A DNA stretch of 64,000 nt, from NCBI GenBank assembly GCA_037310415.1, contig CP147780.1, positions 160,001 through 224,000 of the forward strand, written 5' to 3'. The notes under the pieces were generated by a model. The model was not told the DNA's origin, searched no databases, and was given only the letters and a program-made list of their open reading frames with translations. The position numbers and the translations under genes are program-made. Position 1 is the first letter of the stretch. Each line of letters starts with the position of its first letter. The stretch is from Candidatus Atabeyarchaeum deiterrae. Its GTDB lineage: Archaea; Asgardarchaeota; Atabeyarchaeia; Atabeyarchaeales; Atabeyarchaeaceae. This document shows positions 43,482-56,920 of the stretch, piece by piece.

Positions 43482-44241
43482 CTGCTATACTCATGGGTTC
43501 CTTGGATATCTCACTAATGAATGCTCTTCTAAGTTTGCTAGCTTCCTTGGAGAGTCTCACTTGGAGACTTCCAGCTGAGATCATGCCATTCAAGATCCTC
43601 CTTGTCGATTTGTCCAGATTCCTTTTGAAGGGGGATTTCTGAGCATGGCCTTCGTCATGAGTTGAACCGGAAATGTGCTCTGTTCCTTTTCGGCGAACTG
43701 ATTTCTCCTTAATCTTTGAGAGTACCATACGAATAACTTGCTCTACTGCGTCTTCTGCAGTGGATTTTTCGGAATCTATGACTAAAGCTGGTCTGTCCCA
43801 TTTGTACTTAGTGCCCGGTTGATCGAAGTTCTTCGCTGTCTCCGAGATTATTTCAATAGGTATAGGTTTGTCCCTTGCTGCATTACGTTCTTGTGCAACT
43901 TCGAGAGACACTGTCAGGTACACGATGATGTACTTCGCTCCATGTCTTGTAGCAACTTGTGCGAGTCTATGCCGAGTCGATTCATAGTAGTTCATATCAT
44001 CACTAATCACAATGTTGTCATGCTTCAAACCTTCCTCGATTAGAAGCAGATTGAGAGAGTATACAAAAGGCTCTCTTTTTGGGTCGTAGTGTTGCTCCAT
44101 GGCGGGAACCATTTCTCTAATTCTGTCTGGATCAACTACTAATGTGGGCAATCCGTAGTTAGACTCCAGTTTCCTTGCCAGTAGAGTAGCAACTTTAGTC
44201 TTGCCTGAACAAGGTAATCCACAGAGAATGATCATTAGCAT
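43426..44241 (-). CDS. pstK: O-phosphoseryl-tRNA(Sec) kinase (PSTK/KTI12 family)
   Basis: GLPCSGKT P-loop, DDMNYYESTR, RN..R, FDQPGTKYKWDRP, C-terminal LDKSTRRI helix; Sec-gene context. Confidence 0.88.
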   Translation of the reverse strand: MLMIILCGLPCSGKTKVATLLARKLESNYGLPTLVVDPDRIREMVPAMEQHYDPKREPFVYSLNLLLIEEGLKHDNIVISDDMNYYESTRHRLAQVATRHGAKYIIVYLTVSLEVAQERNAARDKPIPIEIISETAKNFDQPGTKYKWDRPALVIDSEKSTAEDAVEQVIRMVLSKIKEKSVRRKGTEHISGSTHDEGHAQKSPFKRNLDKSTRRILNGMISAGSLQVRLSKEASKLRRAFISEISKEPMSIADAEQEFRKRVSELIRGRT

Positions 44242-45625: not shown

Positions 45626-46195
45626 CTATTCGAAGATCTTTGATACCAGCCACTTCAATGGAGCTTCTATGTTCTGACCCAACCTTGCTGATGTCTCAAA
45701 GTACTGCAATCCCAATCTTGAGGCTCGCGCTTCTGCGGTTGAACGATCTGCCAACCTCTTGTCTTTCAAGTCGATCTTGTTTCCAATTAACACTGCCGGA
45801 ACACGGCTCATTACACTAAAACACTCTTTGACCCAGTCATCGATTTTCCCCAGCGTATGTGGTAGAGTAACATCGAACATGAAGACTACCCCTGCAGACC
45901 CCTTGTAGTAAGACGGGCGGACTATCTTGAACTGAGGTTGACCCGCGAGATCCCACATTAATAGCGTTGTCTGTGTTTTGCCAATATTCATCTTCTTTAC
46001 AGTTATCTCCACTCCCAGTGTAGGGATATACTCGTCATGCAACTGTTTTCCCGTGAAATTTCTCACCAGCGTGGTCTTTCCCACGGCGGGCTCACCAACG
46101 ACAGTTATCTTCAGCTGAGGGCCTTTCAAGAATGGATATTCAACCTTGTACTCTACTTCTTGCCGGCTCAAATCGCTGAACACCTTCACCAGCAT
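45626..46195 (-). CDS. Rab/Ras-like small GTPase
   Basis: GEPAVGKT, PTLGVE, WDLAGQ, YYKG, NKID, ETSAR. Confidence 0.9.
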   Translation of the reverse strand: MLVKVFSDLSRQEVEYKVEYPFLKGPQLKITVVGEPAVGKTTLVRNFTGKQLHDEYIPTLGVEITVKKMNIGKTQTTLLMWDLAGQPQFKIVRPSYYKGSAGVVFMFDVTLPHTLGKIDDWVKECFSVMSRVPAVLIGNKIDLKDKRLADRSTAEARASRLGLQYFETSARLGQNIEAPLKWLVSKIFE

Positions 46196-46237: not shown

Positions 46238-46963
46238 TTAACCTATTCGTTCAATATCTGAATCCTTACCTACTGATTCTTCTTCAGGTTTGGATTCTTC
46301 TTCTTTGCCTAGATCTTGTTTCACTTCCGCCAATTCTGGTTTCTCGACGGACTCTTCTTGAGTCGCTCCAGTTTCCTCCTCTGGCACGGCTGGCGCTGGC
46401 TTCAGTTTCATTATTCCAAGATCCATAAGGGTCTTCCTAACGCTGTCGACAGCTCTGTACACATCTTCTTCCTTCTTTGCGCCTGTACAGACTAGCTTTC
46501 CTGACCCAAAGAGTAGAATGACAACTTTTGGCTCCTTCATCCTATAAATCAGACCAGGAAATTGCTCTGGTTCATACATGACATTTTCCAAGCTGTATGC
46601 GGCCAGCTCAAGGTTCAACTCGGCGCCTAAAGAAGCAGATGCTACAATATTCTGAACGGTAATAATGGGTTCGCCAGTTATCTGGATCCCAGCTTCGCGT
46701 AGATGCTCCACTATCCTATGTACGGCTCTTCCTGCCTCCGCCTCGCTCTTTGCCCCAGTGCAAACCATTTTGCCGGAACTGAAAATGAGAGTCGCCGTCT
46801 TTGGTTTCTTGAGACGATACACTAATCCTGGAAACTGCTCGGGGTCATATTCTACATTGAGTAGTGAACGGGCAACTTTGTCAAGATCAATTCTTTGATT
46901 AACAGCTACTGAAGCAACCACGTTTTCTATTCTTATCTTCGGTTTAGGAAGTGACTGTAACAA
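46238..46963 (-). CDS. tbp: TATA-box binding protein with acidic C-terminal tail
   Basis: Two repeats NVVAS..YDPEQFPGL..LIFSSGKMVCTGAK / NIVAS..YEPEQFPGL..LLFGSGKLVCTGAK; TTG start behind AGGAGG. Confidence 0.96.
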   Translation of the reverse strand: MLQSLPKPKIRIENVVASVAVNQRIDLDKVARSLLNVEYDPEQFPGLVYRLKKPKTATLIFSSGKMVCTGAKSEAEAGRAVHRIVEHLREAGIQITGEPIITVQNIVASASLGAELNLELAAYSLENVMYEPEQFPGLIYRMKEPKVVILLFGSGKLVCTGAKKEEDVYRAVDSVRKTLMDLGIMKLKPAPAVPEEETGATQEESVEKPELAEVKQDLGKEEESKPEEESVGKDSDIERIG

Positions 46964-47057
46964 CAGATATTCCTCCTTTTGGCCCAAATGCAGGAATCTG
47001 CTCCTCAAATCAAGACGTCTTCGCTGCAATTGAAGCTCTTAAAACGATTTGTTTCTC

Positions 47058-47599: not shown

Positions 47600-48595
47600 T
47601 CAGTCTGATGGCTTCCCTGAAAGTTTGTCTATATTGAAGTCGAAGACCTCGACTGAGGATTCACCATCCGAAATGAGAAGTTTTCTTGAATTAACGACCT
47701 TGCCTATAAGCTTGGAGACGACTCCGTGCTTTGAGAGAATAGAGACGCATTGATCTGCTTTCTTCGGGTCTGACGTCAATATCACCCCAAAACCAGGGTA
47801 CGCCTTCAACCATTGATCCATGTCAACGCCTGGTGGCTTTGGGATGTTGGTCAGGTCTATTTCTCCTCCGAGGTTGCTCGAATCTAGGAGCATCCCTAGC
47901 GTTCCAACGATACCCGGGTTGCTTATGTCTTTCGCGGCGGTCGCCAAATTGTCCTTCGCAATTTCGCGCATCGCTCTCAAACGATCTTCAACCTCTGCTT
48001 TCGATTTATGGGTGGTGGTGTCCCAGGCAGTCTTGAAGGCTTTATGAAAACGCCCATCTAGGTCAACAGCCGCTATTATCAGGTCATCTGGCTGCGCGGT
48101 ATTGCTTCTGATCAAAGACTTCTTGCGAACCATGCCTATTATTGAAACGCTGAGTCTATTTGCCGATGCTTCTGGGCTAAGGTGCCCCCCAACCATTGGG
48201 ACATTGAATTTCGAGCAGCCCTCCGTAATACCTTCAACAATTTTGTTTCTGATGTCACTGGATGTCGCAGCTAACGTGTTTACCATCGCAATTGGAGTGC
48301 CACCTTTGGCGGTAATGTCGTTGACGCTAACCAAGACCGAACAGTATCCAGCAAATGTTGGATCAGCATCTATCAGTCTGTCCCATATTTCTTCGGCTTT
48401 GAAAAGCAAGTAGTTATCTTTGTACCCGATATCTATCACGGCGCAGTCTTCACCAAACGATTCAATCACCTTTGCACCGAAAGGAATTGCGGCACTAATC
48501 GTGGATTTCATCCTTCTAGTGACTTCCACAATTGGCGTTTTCCTCTTCACGCCAACATAACTCTTGATAGACTCGGCTATGGGTTTCAAGTTCAT
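47600..48595 (-). CDS. PurM/AIR-synthase superfamily ATP-utilising protein (methanogenesis marker 2-like)
   Basis: GVKRK, FGEDCAVI, VNDITAKGG, VGGH, AKDISNPG, YPGFG. Confidence 0.8.
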   Translation of the reverse strand: MNLKPIAESIKSYVGVKRKTPIVEVTRRMKSTISAAIPFGAKVIESFGEDCAVIDIGYKDNYLLFKAEEIWDRLIDADPTFAGYCSVLVSVNDITAKGGTPIAMVNTLAATSSDIRNKIVEGITEGCSKFNVPMVGGHLSPEASANRLSVSIIGMVRKKSLIRSNTAQPDDLIIAAVDLDGRFHKAFKTAWDTTTHKSKAEVEDRLRAMREIAKDNLATAAKDISNPGIVGTLGMLLDSSNLGGEIDLTNIPKPPGVDMDQWLKAYPGFGVILTSDPKKADQCVSILSKHGVVSKLIGKVVNSRKLLISDGESSVEVFDFNIDKLSGKPSD

Positions 48596-48714
48596 TTTGT
48601 CATTTATCCTCCGATTTTTGGAAAGGACAAGAATTTGGACATGATGTTCAGATTCGAGATAAGTTTGCTACCTGTTTGTGAATATTCAAGTTTCTAGGAT
48701 AACGAGGAAACGAC

Positions 48715-48722
48715 TTTATATT
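48715..48722 (+). promoter_or_regulatory. TATA box of the tRNA-Sec gene
   Basis: GGAAACGAC then TTTATATT, 42 nt before the mature 5' end. Confidence 0.65.
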
Positions 48723-48777
48723 ACTATGGCATCTCACGTGTTGACTGAAAGCACTTGGCGCCCGACAGCGGGGGTGG

Positions 48778-48815
48778 AAGCATTCAATCCGGCATCGAGA
48801 TTGGATGTTGCCTAT
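48778..48815 (+). other. tRNA-Sec intron 1 (38 nt, D-loop)
   Basis: BHB: central helix GGGT/GCCT, bulges GGA and ATT, inner helix AGCATTCAATC/GATTGGATGTT, outer GG/CC. Confidence 0.82.
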
Positions 48816-48852
48816 TCCCAAGCACTGGACTTCAAATCCGGTACACCAGAAA

Positions 48853-48876
48853 AACCTTGCGTATGATGGTTCTGAT
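48853..48876 (+). other. tRNA-Sec intron 2 (24 nt, variable-arm loop)
   Basis: Relaxed BHB: central helix CAGA/TCTG, bulges AAA and ATT, inner helix ACC/GGT; product is a 6-bp stem with GAAA tetraloop. Confidence 0.78.
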
Positions 48877-48892
48877 TGGTGTGGAGTTCGAT

Positions 48893-48917
48893 TCGCCCGA
48901 CAATGCGGGAGCGAGAG
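48893..48917 (+). other. tRNA-Sec intron 3 (25 nt, T-loop 59/60)
   Basis: BHB: outer GGAG/CTCC, central TTCG/CGAG, bulges ATT and AGT, inner CCCG/CGGG. Confidence 0.85.
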
Positions 48918-48939
48918 TCTCCTCGGGCGCCGCCAACCT

Positions 48940-49623
48940 TCAATTTGCGAGATGAGGCGTGCCATCCACTATCCTAGAGATTCTCCTCCTCCAGTCTAGC
49001 GCCTTGACTGCTACTACCCTGGATCTGTCATTGTCCAAAGGAATGCCCTGAGGGTGGGTGTGTAGCATCTCCATTACCTCGCACGTCTCAATGTGTATGG
49101 GGTCAAATCCTTCAAGCGTCCTGATCAGAGTCTCCCTGATAATGCCAATCGTCGGGTATATAATGCCAACGAGTGTTTTTGATAAGATACTGTCTATGGC
49201 TTTGTCCAACTTCATTTCGACTTTTATTATTTCGAATAGTCTTCCCTTTTCCGTTTCATCCATTTTCTTTACTTTCTCCGTCAGGGTCTTTATTCTCTCC
49301 TTGTACTCGGCGAGTTGGTGTTGCGGTTCTTCGGGTTCGTCTGAGCATACCATCAGCTCGATTCCACCGCTCGAAGTTGTGAAGAGCTTTACCAGAAGTT
49401 GCCGATCTGAGGCTGTTTTTGAGGATATGATCGCCTCGCCTACAAAAGAAGATCGATCACCAGTTACTGTCCCTACATTCTCATAGCACCTGCTTCTAAT
49501 CGACGTCACGGAATGATAGGTGATTGCGAAAATACATTGCGCACCAAGATCATCAATCGGGAAAACCTCAGTTTTGCAGGCGAACCCAGACGTGATCCTA
49601 TTCCAATCAGGAGCCTCCGACAC
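48940..49623 (-). CDS. Hypothetical protein (alpha/beta N-domain plus helical C-domain)
   Basis: 227-aa ORF with GAGGAG SD, downstream of SepSecS, convergent on tRNA-Sec. Confidence 0.7.
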   Translation of the reverse strand: MSEAPDWNRITSGFACKTEVFPIDDLGAQCIFAITYHSVTSIRSRCYENVGTVTGDRSSFVGEAIISSKTASDRQLLVKLFTTSSGGIELMVCSDEPEEPQHQLAEYKERIKTLTEKVKKMDETEKGRLFEIIKVEMKLDKAIDSILSKTLVGIIYPTIGIIRETLIRTLEGFDPIHIETCEVMEMLHTHPQGIPLDNDRSRVVAVKALDWRRRISRIVDGTPHLAN

Positions 49624-49690: not shown

Positions 49691-51082
49691 TCACGTGCTT
49701 TTTCCCTGGATCTTCTTCTTCAAAGTCTGATTTATCCCTTGCCTCAGCTTTTCTACTGCCAATGTTATGTCATTTTCTTGTGATCCTATGGCAGCATTCA
49801 TCACTACATACTGGCACGGGTAATTGTTGCAGCAGGAACCCCAATTCCCCGCTGGAACCACTCTTGGTCCGCTCAACCTCAAAGAGTATAAGATCCCTCC
49901 GAGAACACTCGGATCGACCCTGGAAATCGTCATCGCACTCGCGATGGGGTTATTAGTGTTAAGAAGGCGTTCTCCAAGAGAGTCAGCCATCTCTGCAAGG
50001 AGTTTCTGAAGAAGCTTCTTGTTTAACTGCTGAATATCACGGAGTTTCTCATATTTGTCGATTCCAAGCGAGAGGATGGCGGCTAAGAACTGGTAGATAG
50101 GAGCAGAAGAAGCCCGTCCCGCATAATGTGATGCCACTTTCTCAACAAATTTCTCATCTGGGGATGCCACAATTGCTCCTCCGACAGGTGTTAAGAAGTT
50201 CTTGTCCGTACTCTGTATTACCGCATCTACTCGTCCAGCATTCATTGCGAGATTGATTTCTCGCATGATTTCTCTGCTCTGCACTCCATATGCGTTGTTT
50301 ATAACGTGGAAGATATTCTTCTCCGAGGCAATCCTAGCGATCTCCTTGATGGAGTCCTGTTCTCTTGGCGGGAAGAAAGTTGTCGTAGAGAGAATTGCAC
50401 AGCACTGATCGTCGATGGCTTTAGTTACATCTTCTGGCGGGACGCGCACGGCGTCTCCATAAACTTTTCCTTCAACAGTTCTGGGTTTCATGTTCACAAG
50501 GCTCAAGGCTTTCAGAGGTGAGTCATGGTCTATTCTTGGATATACCACAACGTTTTGTCCTCCGTTGGTCGAGTCTCTCACCGTTGCCAAGGTAAGTGCT
50601 ATTGACATGCCAGTAGCCATGGGAATCACAATGGCTGACTTAAGATTAGGAGCACCAAACCTCTTCATTGCATCCAAGGCCAAGATATTCGACAACTCGT
50701 AGAGAACTGACGCACCAGGAGCCTTCGGCTGTGGAGCCAAGAGTGCACCACTTCGTCCAACGCCGTGACAGAACCCTGACGCCAACTCGGAGGTCAGGGG
50801 CGAAGCGACTCTCGCTTCTCGTTCGCCCACTCGCACATTCTCGAGATCCTTATCAACGTCCATCATTGATAGAAGCTTGAGAAAGAAGGCGATGATATCA
50901 TCGCCCCAGCCTGACTTCGGAATTCTCCTTTGTTGAAGAAGTTCTCTAACGAGGTCAAGTTGCGTATTAAGGGCCATGAATGAGCGTTTCAGCATGTTTT
51001 GAGGTATGAGCCCCTTAAGGTAATCCTCAAACTTGTCCAAATCAGGTACCTCAGTTGACCTTTCTATACTAATAGTTCCCAT
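49691..51082 (-). CDS. spcS: O-phosphoseryl-tRNA(Sec) selenium transferase (SepSecS)
   Basis: MDVDK, VGEREARV, FCHGVGRSG..LAPQPKAPG, PMATGMS, NNAYG, QSTDKNF PLP-Lys motif, YAGRAS. Confidence 0.95.
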   Translation of the reverse strand: MGTISIERSTEVPDLDKFEDYLKGLIPQNMLKRSFMALNTQLDLVRELLQQRRIPKSGWGDDIIAFFLKLLSMMDVDKDLENVRVGEREARVASPLTSELASGFCHGVGRSGALLAPQPKAPGASVLYELSNILALDAMKRFGAPNLKSAIVIPMATGMSIALTLATVRDSTNGGQNVVVYPRIDHDSPLKALSLVNMKPRTVEGKVYGDAVRVPPEDVTKAIDDQCCAILSTTTFFPPREQDSIKEIARIASEKNIFHVINNAYGVQSREIMREINLAMNAGRVDAVIQSTDKNFLTPVGGAIVASPDEKFVEKVASHYAGRASSAPIYQFLAAILSLGIDKYEKLRDIQQLNKKLLQKLLAEMADSLGERLLNTNNPIASAMTISRVDPSVLGGILYSLRLSGPRVVPAGNWGSCCNNYPCQYVVMNAAIGSQENDITLAVEKLRQGINQTLKKKIQGKST

Positions 51083-51115: not shown

Positions 51116-52504
51116 TCAACCTAAAATCAATTCCCGATAGCGCTTCAGTGACACTTTCTCTCCAAGGTTAGGCATCTCACCAAACTCAGCCACTACCAGC
51201 CCCCTCGTTCCGAAAGTTGAAGATACTATGCCTTTGACACCCCTTTCGGTGGTGATTCCCTCTCCTATGATCCTTTCTCCTCCGATCTTGCTCTTTGACA
51301 GACCTCCGATCAGTACGCTCCCCGCACGAAGGACCCTGGCAACGATACCAGTTTTCTCATCAAAGATACACAGTTGAGGCTGCGAGGGCAATCTTTCCAA
51401 GACAATGCCACTAGCGGCTATCCTTAGGGCTGTCGGCGACAAACTCAGCAATGAAAGCAGAATCTTATCTCCAGGCTCAGCGATTATTGGTTGCCGCGGT
51501 CTCAGATACATCTGGAACTCAACACCCCCCTGCGCAGACGTGATCATTTCCTTGTTCTCTTCAGACCGGTAAGGGTATACTTCTGCTTGAACCGATGACA
51601 TACCTACAGTCATATGCATGGCCAGTCCTGGTTTTACCTCGCGGTTGAAGAACCTGTTGATCTTAGCTTTGGCTATTATGTGACTAGTTGGCTTCAGGGA
51701 ACCAAGTAGACAAGCGTAGTATCCTCTGTGAACGGCTCTGTGATCAACGCCTTGCAGCGCCATGCCAACCCGATCACCAGCTTCAGCCATTTTCCTTGGT
51801 TCTTTAAATGTTTGAATCGATTTCACGCGGCTCCTGATGTTTGCAGGCGATATCTCAACCTCCTCATCCACCCTTATCGTTCCACGAACAATTGTACCTG
51901 TCACGACTGTTCCAACACCCTTTATTGGAAAAGCATGGTCTATGACCATTCTGAACTTGCCCAGAGGATCTCTTTTCGGAATAGTTAGTATCGACAAAAG
52001 AAGATCTTTCAGCTCTGAAATCCCTGAGCTTCTCAGAGACGAAACAGGCGCGATAGGTGCATTTCTGAACCTGGAATCAGATAGTATGTTTTGGATTGAT
52101 TCTTTGACTGCGGTCACCTTTGTTTCATTTACGAGGTCAATTTTAGTCAAAGCAACTAGTACACTCTGTATTTCCAAGCTCTCTAATAGGACCAAGTGTT
52201 CACCCGTCTGTGTCTGAGGGCCTTGCGTTGCAGACACAACAAGTATTGCAGAGTCGATTATACTCGCACCACTCACTGCGGTTCTTATCAGGTCTGCATG
52301 TCCCGGAACGTCCACTAGGGTTACCAAGTAATTGGCCAACGTGAATGCTGTGAAGCCTATGTCGATGCTCATTTGCCTTCTCTTTGCTTCTGGATGTCTA
52401 TCCAAACCGGCAGTCGAGACTTTCTCGCTTAGTGCTCTCGCTAGTTCGGTTTTACCATGATCAACGTGACCGAACAGTCCCACGTGTACGGAGGTTAATC
52501 CCAG
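51116..52504 (-). CDS. selB: Selenocysteine-specific elongation factor, archaeal type
   Basis: GHVDHGKT, SIDIGF, DVPGH, TKID, DHAFPIKGVGTVVTG, AGDRVG; start extended to CTG at 52504 (see findings). Confidence 0.93.
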   Translation of the reverse strand: MGLTSVHVGLFGHVDHGKTELARALSEKVSTAGLDRHPEAKRRQMSIDIGFTAFTLANYLVTLVDVPGHADLIRTAVSGASIIDSAILVVSATQGPQTQTGEHLVLLESLEIQSVLVALTKIDLVNETKVTAVKESIQNILSDSRFRNAPIAPVSSLRSSGISELKDLLLSILTIPKRDPLGKFRMVIDHAFPIKGVGTVVTGTIVRGTIRVDEEVEISPANIRSRVKSIQTFKEPRKMAEAGDRVGMALQGVDHRAVHRGYYACLLGSLKPTSHIIAKAKINRFFNREVKPGLAMHMTVGMSSVQAEVYPYRSEENKEMITSAQGGVEFQMYLRPRQPIIAEPGDKILLSLLSLSPTALRIAASGIVLERLPSQPQLCIFDEKTGIVARVLRAGSVLIGGLSKSKIGGERIIGEGITTERGVKGIVSSTFGTRGLVVAEFGEMPNLGEKVSLKRYRELILG

Positions 52505-55529: not shown

Positions 55530-56162
55530 CTACATTTTCCTCCACTCAAAAATCAGATAGTTCACAATGCCTGAGGGAGGAATCGTTGCTATTATGAACT
55601 TCTTTCTCACCGTGGTTGCCAGTCTTCCTGCTCTCACTGTTTCTATTGGGTTGATTGTCGTGCCTTTTGGTAGAGCATGGACTATGAAGGGTGCGTGATC
55701 TATTCCTGGACCGTGCTGGTAGACTCCAAAGTCTGCACCGAACTTCAGTCCCGGTCTAACCACATAGCCTCTTTCCCTAAGATCTTTGTAGACAACGTAT
55801 TTATCATCAAATTCGAAGTAGACTTTTGTTGCATAATCCTGCAGCTCTCGGGCAGTCATCTGATTCTTTGTCTTGCTGTTTATCAGTTTTATTCTCTCTT
55901 TCTCGAGCAGGTAGAGAGCTTCAAGAAGTGAGAGCTCGACTGGGCACGTAAAGTCGAATGTCTTCGGCTTTCTTATTGAGATCGGCTGTCCGTAATAACC
56001 TTCCTTGTAGAGTTTTGATCCTTCTTTTGGATTCCACACTACGATGTGTGCCCCAATCAATTCGGCGGTAACCGGCTCGGTAAGCGCTTTCTCCTTCGAG
56101 ACTTTCTGCGCATCTTCCTTGGACAAATCACCGTGCCAAGATGTTTCGGTTGATCCTGTCAT
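55530..56162 (-). CDS. endA: tRNA-splicing endonuclease, catalytic subunit
   Basis: LSLLEALYL, YVVYKDLRERGY, GLKFGADFGVY..GPGIDHA, VRK (catalytic Tyr/His/Lys); start uncertain. Confidence 0.93.
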   Translation of the reverse strand: MTGSTETSWHGDLSKEDAQKVSKEKALTEPVTAELIGAHIVVWNPKEGSKLYKEGYYGQPISIRKPKTFDFTCPVELSLLEALYLLEKERIKLINSKTKNQMTARELQDYATKVYFEFDDKYVVYKDLRERGYVVRPGLKFGADFGVYQHGPGIDHAPFIVHALPKGTTINPIETVRAGRLATTVRKKFIIATIPPSGIVNYLIFEWRKM

Positions 56163-56242
56163 TAGACTGTCACCAATATATTGGCTAGTGTAGATACCCT
56201 GATCTGCCATATGCCCTGAGATAGTTGGAGTGGGATTTCGCC

Positions 56243-56920
56243 TCATTTGCTTCTTGACATCGCAACTATTCGTATCGCGTCTGCTGCCCGTTCAGCCGTA
56301 TCTGCCATCTCTTCAAAATGAGCTATTAATTCTTTCAGCATTATGAGGGTTCTCGGTTCCATCTTCGACATGTAAGAGGAACGACCTATTCGTCTCTGTA
56401 CTATGTCCGCCTCTTTTTCAAGAGCATCAACTTCATCTGCCAGTTCTATAGCCTTGCTGGGGTTCTGTGTTAACATGAATATTGAAAGCCGAAGTTTATC
56501 CGTAGCCATGATGAGTTTCTCCACGAGCAATTGCATCTCTTTTCTCAAGTTTATGTCTGGCTTCCAATCTTGAATGGCTAGAATGCGAAATCCGGTGCCT
56601 TCAGCCACGTCGGCTATTTCATCAACCACAAGCGCTAGCCGCATTAGGTCTTCTCGGTTAACCATAGTGGTTGCCTTTGATAGTTGGTCAAGCAATTCAT
56701 GCTTCAGTTCGTTGGCATCACTCTCAATTCTTGATATTCTGTCAAGCCTCTCTTCAGCCTCCTTGTAGTCGCCCTCAACCCAGTCATCGTATAGGAGGCT
56801 GAGCTCTTTGACAACCGAAACAATTTTGCGGCAGTGATCCTGAGCAATGTCAATAGCTTTTTGCTCTGCTGAAGCATCATAAGGATCAATTGTCGACGTA
56901 GCTAGCTCCACCTCAATCAA
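56243..56920 (-). CDS. DUF47/PhoU-like phosphate transport regulator
   Basis: IESDANELK, REDLMRL...DEIAD, LEKEADIV, EEMADTAE repeats. Confidence 0.85.
   Translation of the reverse strand: MIEVELATSTIDPYDASAEQKAIDIAQDHCRKIVSVVKELSLLYDDWVEGDYKEAEERLDRISRIESDANELKHELLDQLSKATTMVNREDLMRLALVVDEIADVAEGTGFRILAIQDWKPDINLRKEMQLLVEKLIMATDKLRLSIFMLTQNPSKAIELADEVDALEKEADIVQRRIGRSSYMSKMEPRTLIMLKELIAHFEEMADTAERAADAIRIVAMSRSK

Follow-up and report, generated by a model that had tools for sequence, protein, structure and literature searches.

A selenocysteine tRNA gene interrupted by three insertions

The window, by which we mean the whole 64,000-nt stretch of DNA that was analyzed, covers positions 160,001 to 224,000 of the forward strand of contig CP147780.1, from the closed genome of Candidatus Atabeyarchaeum deiterrae (Atabeyarchaeia-2). 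It contains a 179-nt segment bounded by a 9-bp acceptor stem, in which the 5' strand GGCGCCCGA faces its perfect complement TCGGGCGCC, followed by GCCA (Table 1). G73 and the pairs G2:C71 and C3:G70 are visible in the letters of this segment, and the anticodon arm ACTGGA CTTCAAA TCCGGT combines a 6-bp stem with a 7-nt loop containing U33 and A37. Relatives carry a one-sided change in the anticodon stem, from U.G to C-G. The original prediction, made from the letters alone, was that the segment is a tRNA-Sec(UCA) gene with introns in the D-loop, the variable arm, and the T-loop.

An exhaustive search of deletions recovered the predicted 92-nt product by removing 38, 24, and 25 nt from the 179 nt. 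The placement of the deletions is unique for introns 1 and 2, while three equivalent registers exist for intron 3 because of a repeated T. The minimum free energy (MFE) fold of the product is the archaeal 9/4 cloverleaf; its D-loop reads UGGU, its T-loop reads UUCGAUU, and GAAA caps the 6 bp of its variable stem. ARAGORN called the product tRNA-SeC(tca), and fold and call together bear out the identity assigned to the 179-nt segment. Removal of intron 1 leaves a D-stem and loop in a 7 + 4 + 7 layout around UGGU, and removal of intron 2 leaves the variable arm ACACCA GAAA TGGTGT. A 7-bp D-stem and a 4-nt D-loop are among the published criteria for archaeal tRNA-Sec (PMC4989117, PMC5330540). Standard pairing in the D-stem extends to 5 of the 7 positions here, where there are two G.A mismatches, and to 6 of 7 in relatives, where there is one mismatch.

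Table 1 Features of the tRNA-Sec locus of Atabeyarchaeia-2. Positions refer to the window.
Feature	Position	Strand	Description
PSTK	43540..44241	-	PF08433, 114.6 bits; coordinates are the extent of the KTI12-family match
AIR-synthase-family protein, methanogenesis-marker-2-like (mm2-like)	47600..48595	-	TIGR03267, 371 bits versus cut-off 365
TATA-like box CTTTATATT, putative promoter	48714..48722	+	about 35-43 nt upstream of the mature 5' end
Pre-tRNA-Sec(UCA) gene	48757..48935	+	179 nt; G73 and CCA encoded
Exon 1	48757..48777	+	acceptor 5' strand (9 nt), CA, D-stem 5' strand, D-loop UGG
Intron 1	48778..48815	+	38 nt, D-loop UGG|U; hBHBh' motif
Exon 2	48816..48852	+	D-loop U, D-stem 3' strand, anticodon arm (CUUCAAA), variable-stem 5' strand, GAAA loop
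Intron 2	48853..48876	+	24 nt, after the final loop nucleotide of the variable arm and before its 3' stem strand
Exon 3	48877..48892	+	variable-stem 3' strand, T-stem 5' strand GGAG, T-loop UUCGAU
Intron 3	48893..48917	+	25 nt, T-loop position 59/60 (TTCGAT|T)
Exon 4	48918..48935	+	T-loop U, T-stem 3' strand CUCC, acceptor 3' strand, GCCA
Sel_Asgard, putative selenocysteine-system protein	48940..49623	-	227 aa; NCBIfam NF045535, 134 bits versus cut-off 132
SepSecS	49691..51082	-	PF05889, 397 bits
Archaeal SelB (EFsec)	51116..52483	-	TIGR00475, 286 bits; aSelB_III domain
EndA, tRNA splicing endonuclease	55530..56246	-	PF01974 and PF02778, TIGR00324

Genes of selenocysteine synthesis and tRNA splicing

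The tRNA-Sec gene lies among genes of the selenocysteine (Sec) pathway. The stop of the Sel_Asgard reading frame, which had no Pfam match, is 5 nt from the 3' end of tRNA-Sec. Sel_Asgard is syntenic in the orthologous loci of Atabeyarchaeia and also occurs in Freyarchaeia, at 24% identity, and the gene order mm2-like, tRNA-Sec, Sel_Asgard, SepSecS recurs at the orthologous loci as well as in Freyarchaeia. The gene that we assign to PSTK is annotated as such in PMC11291895. A SelD homolog (237 bits) is encoded at genome positions 899256-900152 (+), so that PSTK, SepSecS, SelB, and SelD are all found in the genome. The SelD reading frame has one in-frame TGA, which is consistent with a Sec-containing selenophosphate synthetase and with active UGA recoding.

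As for splicing enzymes, the genome carries two EndA paralogs, at window positions 55530-56246 (-) and at genome positions 625628-625888 (+), with PF01974 scores of 103.9 and 70.4 bits, respectively. The pair is consistent with a two-subunit, broad-specificity alpha-beta endonuclease. The paralog in the window has an extended N-terminus (238 aa in all). One gene for the RtcB ligase is present in the genome.

Other features of the region are reported here as side observations. A Ras/Rab-family small GTPase (45626-46195, -) and TBP (46238-47029, -) lie between PSTK and the tRNA-Sec cluster. The mm2-like protein is found in a lineage described as non-methanogenic, and it adjoins tRNA-Sec in two Asgard classes, at 53-68% identity; as it is distantly SelD-like, a selenium-related role is conceivable. 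Two open reading frames that overlap the tRNA, 48648-48965 (-) and 48755-48955 (+), were taken as spurious.

Detection by gene finders and profile models

Run on the window and on the unspliced segment with intron search on, ARAGORN called no tRNA in either, and an Rfam scan at gathering thresholds did not detect the gene either. A sensitive scan of the unspliced DNA with the Rfam tRNA-Sec model RF01852 gave 25.9 bits, below the gathering cut-off of 47, with an alignment that covers the anticodon, variable, and T arms and pairs the acceptor wrongly. In the published annotation of this genome, tRNAscan-SE assigned the gene 0 introns, R2DT assigned it 3, and the gene itself was found by Secmarker only (PMC11291895). 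The expectation that standard finders may miss this gene is borne out by these results.

RF01852 was applied to the unspliced DNA; the spliced product was scored with ARAGORN and with an nhmmer profile instead. With this sequence HMM, for which 28 Asgard tRNA-Sec genes free of introns served as the input, the product reached 47.6 bits over its full length (E = 6e-16) versus 13.2 bits for the precursor. When the junctions were shifted by -3 to +3 nt, the proposed register scored highest.

No other tRNA-Sec was found in the closed genome. ARAGORN reported a tRNA-SeC at genome positions 246125-246215, which we rejected: it is a 7/5 class I tRNA-Arg(TCG) with an intron misplaced by ARAGORN, and the table of PMC11291895 enters it as Arg TCG. 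The other sub-threshold RF01852 matches in the genome were likewise set aside, as they are tRNA genes for other amino acids according to ARAGORN or the published table. A misplaced 13-nt intron turns this tRNA-Arg(TCG) into tRNA-SeC(tca) and, in the same way, tRNA-Arg(CCG) at 243848-243938 into tRNA-Trp(cca). Over the whole genome, ARAGORN called 24 tRNA genes versus 43 in the curated table.

Bulge-helix-bulge motifs at the exon-intron boundaries

Strict scans for bulge-helix-bulge motifs with loose helix thresholds return many chance matches within 179 nt; a motif was therefore accepted only if it recurred at the homologous sites of orthologs. At all three introns, the central helix has 4/4 bp and is kept in all orthologs. 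In intron 1, the central helix GGGT/GCCT (precursor G16-T19 with G54-T57) is flanked by the bulges GG|A and AT|T, an inner helix of 11 bp, and an outer helix of 2 bp. In intron 2, the central helix CAGA/TCTG is flanked by the bulges AA|A and AT|T(G) and a 3-bp inner helix (the AAC../..GTT region). Its outer helix has 1 bp with a strict 3-nt 3' bulge, and the register of the mature variable stem needs a 4-nt bulge, with G122 also unpaired; we describe this motif as a slightly relaxed bulge-helix-bulge. In intron 3, the central helix TTCG/CGAG (TGAA in relatives) is flanked by the bulges AT|T and AG|T, its outer helix is the 4-bp T-stem, and its inner helix here has one G.A mismatch, with 1 bp before the mismatch and 4 after it. 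Each motif has at least one flanking helix of at least 2 bp, the inner/outer lengths being 11/2, 3/1, and 1 (+4 after the mismatch)/4.

A cut after the second nucleotide of each bulge, the rule applied in the original prediction, fits all three motifs, those of introns 1 and 3 in strict form (GGA/ATT and ATT/AGT). Shuffling the introns with the exons kept produced a canonical motif at the fixed boundaries in a fraction of 0.060, 0.004, and 0.064 of cases for introns 1, 2, and 3, respectively. The intron sites also emerged from an approach that makes no use of the motifs: alignment to the 28 intron-free Asgard tRNA-Sec genes opened one gap at TGG|T, a second within the loop of the variable arm, and a third at TTCGAT|T, the three sites named in the original prediction.

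Folding energies qualify this picture. The bulge-helix-bulge conformer has a free energy of -61 to -65 kcal/mol versus -78.3 kcal/mol for the MFE fold of the naked precursor and is hence 13-17 kcal/mol less stable, so that thermodynamics alone does not predict the motifs and protein binding or co-transcriptional folding would be needed. Each boundary can form a bulge-helix-bulge motif with a 4/4 central helix, intron 2 being the slightly relaxed case, and the MFE fold of the naked precursor lacks these conformers. A search for sequencing runs turned up no RNA data for this stretch, one run labeled as a metatranscriptome gave no contigs on it, and no spliced joints were seen in three public DNA runs; these results speak neither for nor against splicing.

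Conservation among orthologs

Orthologs with all three insertions were found in two genomes of the same family and in three metagenome contigs, one of these copies being cut at the contig end. Across the five complete copies, 87/92 exon columns (95%) are invariant, exon 1 being unchanged save for a 2-nt linker, and the 9-bp acceptor and the 4-bp T-stem are both 100% paired. Among intron columns, 8/39, 10/24, and 11/25 (21-44%) are invariant in the same five copies, and the sequences on either side of the gene are unrelated. Intron positions that do not vary belong to the motifs, as TTCTGA in intron 2 does. A/T boxes like the TATA-like box CTTTATATT precede several orthologs; from its sequence, this box may function as the promoter.

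The helices of the modeled pre-tRNA are paired in 98.8% of cells over six sequences (the one cut at the contig end included), compared to 38-48% in a control in which the 3' partners were slid by 1-3 columns. One-sided changes that preserve pairing occur in central helices 1 and 3 (G.U to G-C, U.G to U-A, and CGAG to TGAA). A covariation shuffle test on the six orthologs was not significant because the orthologs are close relatives. The third nucleotide of the 5' bulge of intron 3 varies between T and G among orthologs, as expected if it is intronic by the cut rule. In DNA contigs of relatives from public runs, differences fall almost only within the introns, and no intron-free allele was found.

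Introns in other Asgard tRNA-Sec genes

A survey with RF01852 gave above-threshold matches in 38 of 151 Asgard genomes, and among the matches listed nearly all of those above threshold are uninterrupted genes of 87-89 nt. We extracted 30 intron-free genes, 28 of them unique. The TTCGATT T-loop and an encoded GCCA are present in 30/30, and the TGGT D-loop in 29/30 (TGGA in one). The spliced product aligns with these genes end to end and shares TGGT, CTTCAAA, TTCGATT, and GCCA with them; they differ in lacking all three insertions, and the best pairwise match to the product reaches about 65/92 positions. The other Asgard tRNA-Sec genes examined have short variable arms with loops of 4-6 nt.

Interrupted genes also occur beyond Atabeyarchaeia. 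The tRNA-Sec gene of a Freyarchaeia genome (C1:810384-810536, -) is 153 nt long and has two canonical bulge-helix-bulge introns, of 28 nt in the D-loop and 32 nt in the T-loop, at the same sites as introns 1 and 3. The published entry for Freyarchaeia gives 810415-810536 with one intron (Supplementary Data 4 of PMC11291895); on our reading, that span seems to omit 31 nt (810384-810414) and one intron. In one genome of family f9 (G134), a single 29-nt intron with a 3/4 central helix lies at T-loop position 59/60, the site of intron 3, and in another (G146) a single 24-nt intron, parsed by eye, lies at the canonical 37/38 site. The D-loop intron at TGG|T is common to Atabeyarchaeia and Freyarchaeia, with a central helix GGGT/[GA]CC[CT]. 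Among the tRNA-Sec genes examined, a variable-arm intron is found only in the Atabeyarchaeia-type orthologs.

The intron at T-loop position 59/60 might be ancient and orthologous across Asgard classes, and perhaps that of the D-loop might be too, a tentative view that we think somewhat doubtful. It is based on the T-loop intron occupying the same TTCGAT|T site in Atabeyarchaeia, in Freyarchaeia, and in one f9 genome (G134), on the T-loop intron of the published Lokiarchaeota gene, and, for the D-loop intron, on the shared TGG|T site and central helix. Alternatively, introns may have inserted repeatedly and independently at the few positions whose exon sequence allows the motif to form, and independent insertion is favored for tRNA introns in general (bioRxiv 10.64898/2026.10.13.758758).

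Alternative readings of the locus

Could the 24-nt variable-arm insertion be kept in the mature tRNA, with only the D-loop and T-loop insertions spliced? The result would be an extended arm of 6 bp, an internal loop, and an AACC/GGTT helix. A long variable arm is natural to tRNA-Sec, exactly such an extended hairpin is drawn in the MFE fold of the precursor in place of a bulge-helix-bulge, and under the strict 3-nt bulge model intron 2 is left with an outer helix of only 1 bp. Comparison among orthologs nevertheless favors removal. The CAGA/TCTG central helix is 4/4 paired in 6/6 orthologs, and TTCTGA is invariant while the interior of intron 2 diverges, an invariance that the extended hairpin does not explain because CTGA is unpaired in it. 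The third pair of the inner helix, moreover, is broken in 2/6 sequences. The other Asgard tRNA-Sec genes examined are short-armed, and removing the insertion gives back a GAAA loop of the GNRA type, comparable to the GCAA of those genes; in shuffles of intron 2, the canonical motif appears in only 0.4%. We therefore regard retention of the insertion as very unlikely. Much the same low probability attaches to a reading in which the introns are real and at least one junction lies 1-3 nt off, such as a cut that follows position 22 or 23 of the precursor and would give a larger D-loop. Cuts of intron 1 at these two positions also produce 4/4 central helices, in this genome alone, and a +1 shift scored only 2.6 bits lower in the HMM test. 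Against this, the sole intron-1 register found here that recurs at the homologous place in the two same-family genomes (G001 and G002) is 21|60, which restores the TGGT D-loop of 29/30 intron-free genes, and the invariant TTCGATT T-loop is restored as well.

Another possibility is that the locus is a decaying tRNA-Sec pseudogene with insertions, Sec decoding having been lost or being served elsewhere. The Rfam score of 25.9 against a cut-off of 47, the two G.A mismatches in the D-stem, and a Secmarker score of 36.3, just over the threshold of 35 (PMC11291895), would all suit such decay. Decay would be hard to reconcile, however, with exons that are 95% invariant in five complete orthologs, against divergence in the flanks and in the interiors of the introns. 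The Sec machinery as a whole is intact and lies adjacent, SelD has its in-frame TGA, and the closed genome offers no alternative tRNA-Sec. Introns are also the norm for tRNA genes of the Atabeyarchaeia-2 genome (PMC11291895). We consider a pseudogene extremely improbable. On the evidence of all the preceding sections, it is very probable that 48757-48935 is the single functional tRNA-Sec gene of Atabeyarchaeia-2, spliced at three bulge-helix-bulge motifs. The present analysis shows the gene, the fit of its product to tRNA-Sec, the motifs, their conservation, and the genes of the enzymes.

Proposed processing route

From the features above, we infer how the gene would be transcribed, where its transcript would actually be cleaved, and how the product would be ligated and charged. 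Transcription of the 179-nt precursor would probably start from the TATA-like box at 48714-48722, and RNase P and 3'-end processing would trim the precursor ends. Three separate bulge-helix-bulge motifs would form, in the D-loop, the variable-arm loop, and the T-loop, each by pairing between four exon nucleotides that closely precede the 5' cut and four near the 3' end of the intron. EndA, probably heteromeric, would cut two nucleotides into each bulge, and RtcB would join the four exons into the 92-nt archaeal-type tRNA-Sec. SerRS, PSTK, SepSecS, and aSelB make up the established archaeal and eukaryotic route to Sec. By this route, SerRS would serylate the tRNA-Sec, PSTK and SepSecS would convert Ser to Sec, and aSelB would deliver it to UGA codons.

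Discussion

The gene has a published record. In Supplementary Data 4 of Valentin-Alvarado et al. 2024 (PMC11291895), whose rows for SRVP Atabeyarchaeota_2 agree with the tRNA coordinates that ARAGORN gave for this genome, a SeC UCA gene of Atabeyarchaeia-2 is entered at 208757-208932, which corresponds to window positions 48757-48932 and is the same gene with the same anticodon. The Atabeyarchaeia-1 ortholog (locus 196286-196460 of G001) is also listed there with 3 introns. For Lokiarchaeota, a tRNA-Sec with a non-canonical 31-nt T-loop intron was described by Mariotti et al. 2016 (PMC4989117). With the gene and its three introns tabulated in 2024 and the T-loop intron reported in 2016, the finding is therefore already known. 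The original prediction had rightly noted that insertion-bearing tRNA-Sec genes were known in some Asgard lineages, as they have been since 2016 (PMC4989117), and had left the novelty of the triple arrangement open; the count of three introns was in print by 2024 (PMC11291895). The SeC rows of that table come without intron coordinates, positions, or motifs, and the main-text passages of the paper on Sec or on introns do not discuss introns in the Sec tRNA. Relative to those rows and passages, the present analysis adds the exact intron sites, the anatomy of the motifs, and the comparison across lineages.

Several known tRNA genes invite comparison. The Lokiarchaeota gene resembles the present one in its 9/4 fold, 7-bp D-stem, 4-nt D-loop, G73, and T-loop intron, and it differs in having one intron instead of three, with none in the D-loop or variable arm (PMC4989117). 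Canonical introns have been reported in the tRNA-Sec of Daphnia (Santesmasses et al. 2017). Hidden tRNA introns of Asgard archaea have been surveyed, insertions in the variable region included, and most of the genomes were found to have two EndA paralogs (bioRxiv 10.64898/2026.10.13.758758). The multi-intron tRNA genes of Atabeyarchaeia and Freyarchaeia (PMC11291895; bioRxiv 10.64898/2026.10.13.758758), and those of Thermoproteales as described in the two papers, likewise have several short introns at non-canonical sites and bulge-helix-bulge motifs built partly from exon, along with two EndA paralogs, consistent with an alpha-beta enzyme. What distinguishes the present gene from these is its host, a Sec tRNA with a 9/4 fold, and the position of one intron in the loop of a long variable arm.

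The suggestion that splicing could gate Sec decoding did not hold up, in that no feature distinguishes tRNA-Sec from the other tRNAs of this genome that carry introns. PMC11291895 reports introns in 92-95% of the tRNA genes of three complete genomes, Atabeyarchaeia-2 included, with over half of the genes having several; by that account tRNA-Sec is not special, and gating is without support.

The exact intron sites and motifs described here can be used for junction probes and EndA assays. ARAGORN, Rfam, and, as reported in PMC11291895, tRNAscan-SE can miss the very tRNA that decides whether UGA encodes selenocysteine, and annotation of Asgard genomes can therefore wrongly call the Sec trait incomplete. 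If the T-loop intron, and perhaps the D-loop intron, should prove ancient, tRNA-Sec would be a marker locus with which the gain and loss of introns could be dated in the lineage closest to eukaryotes.
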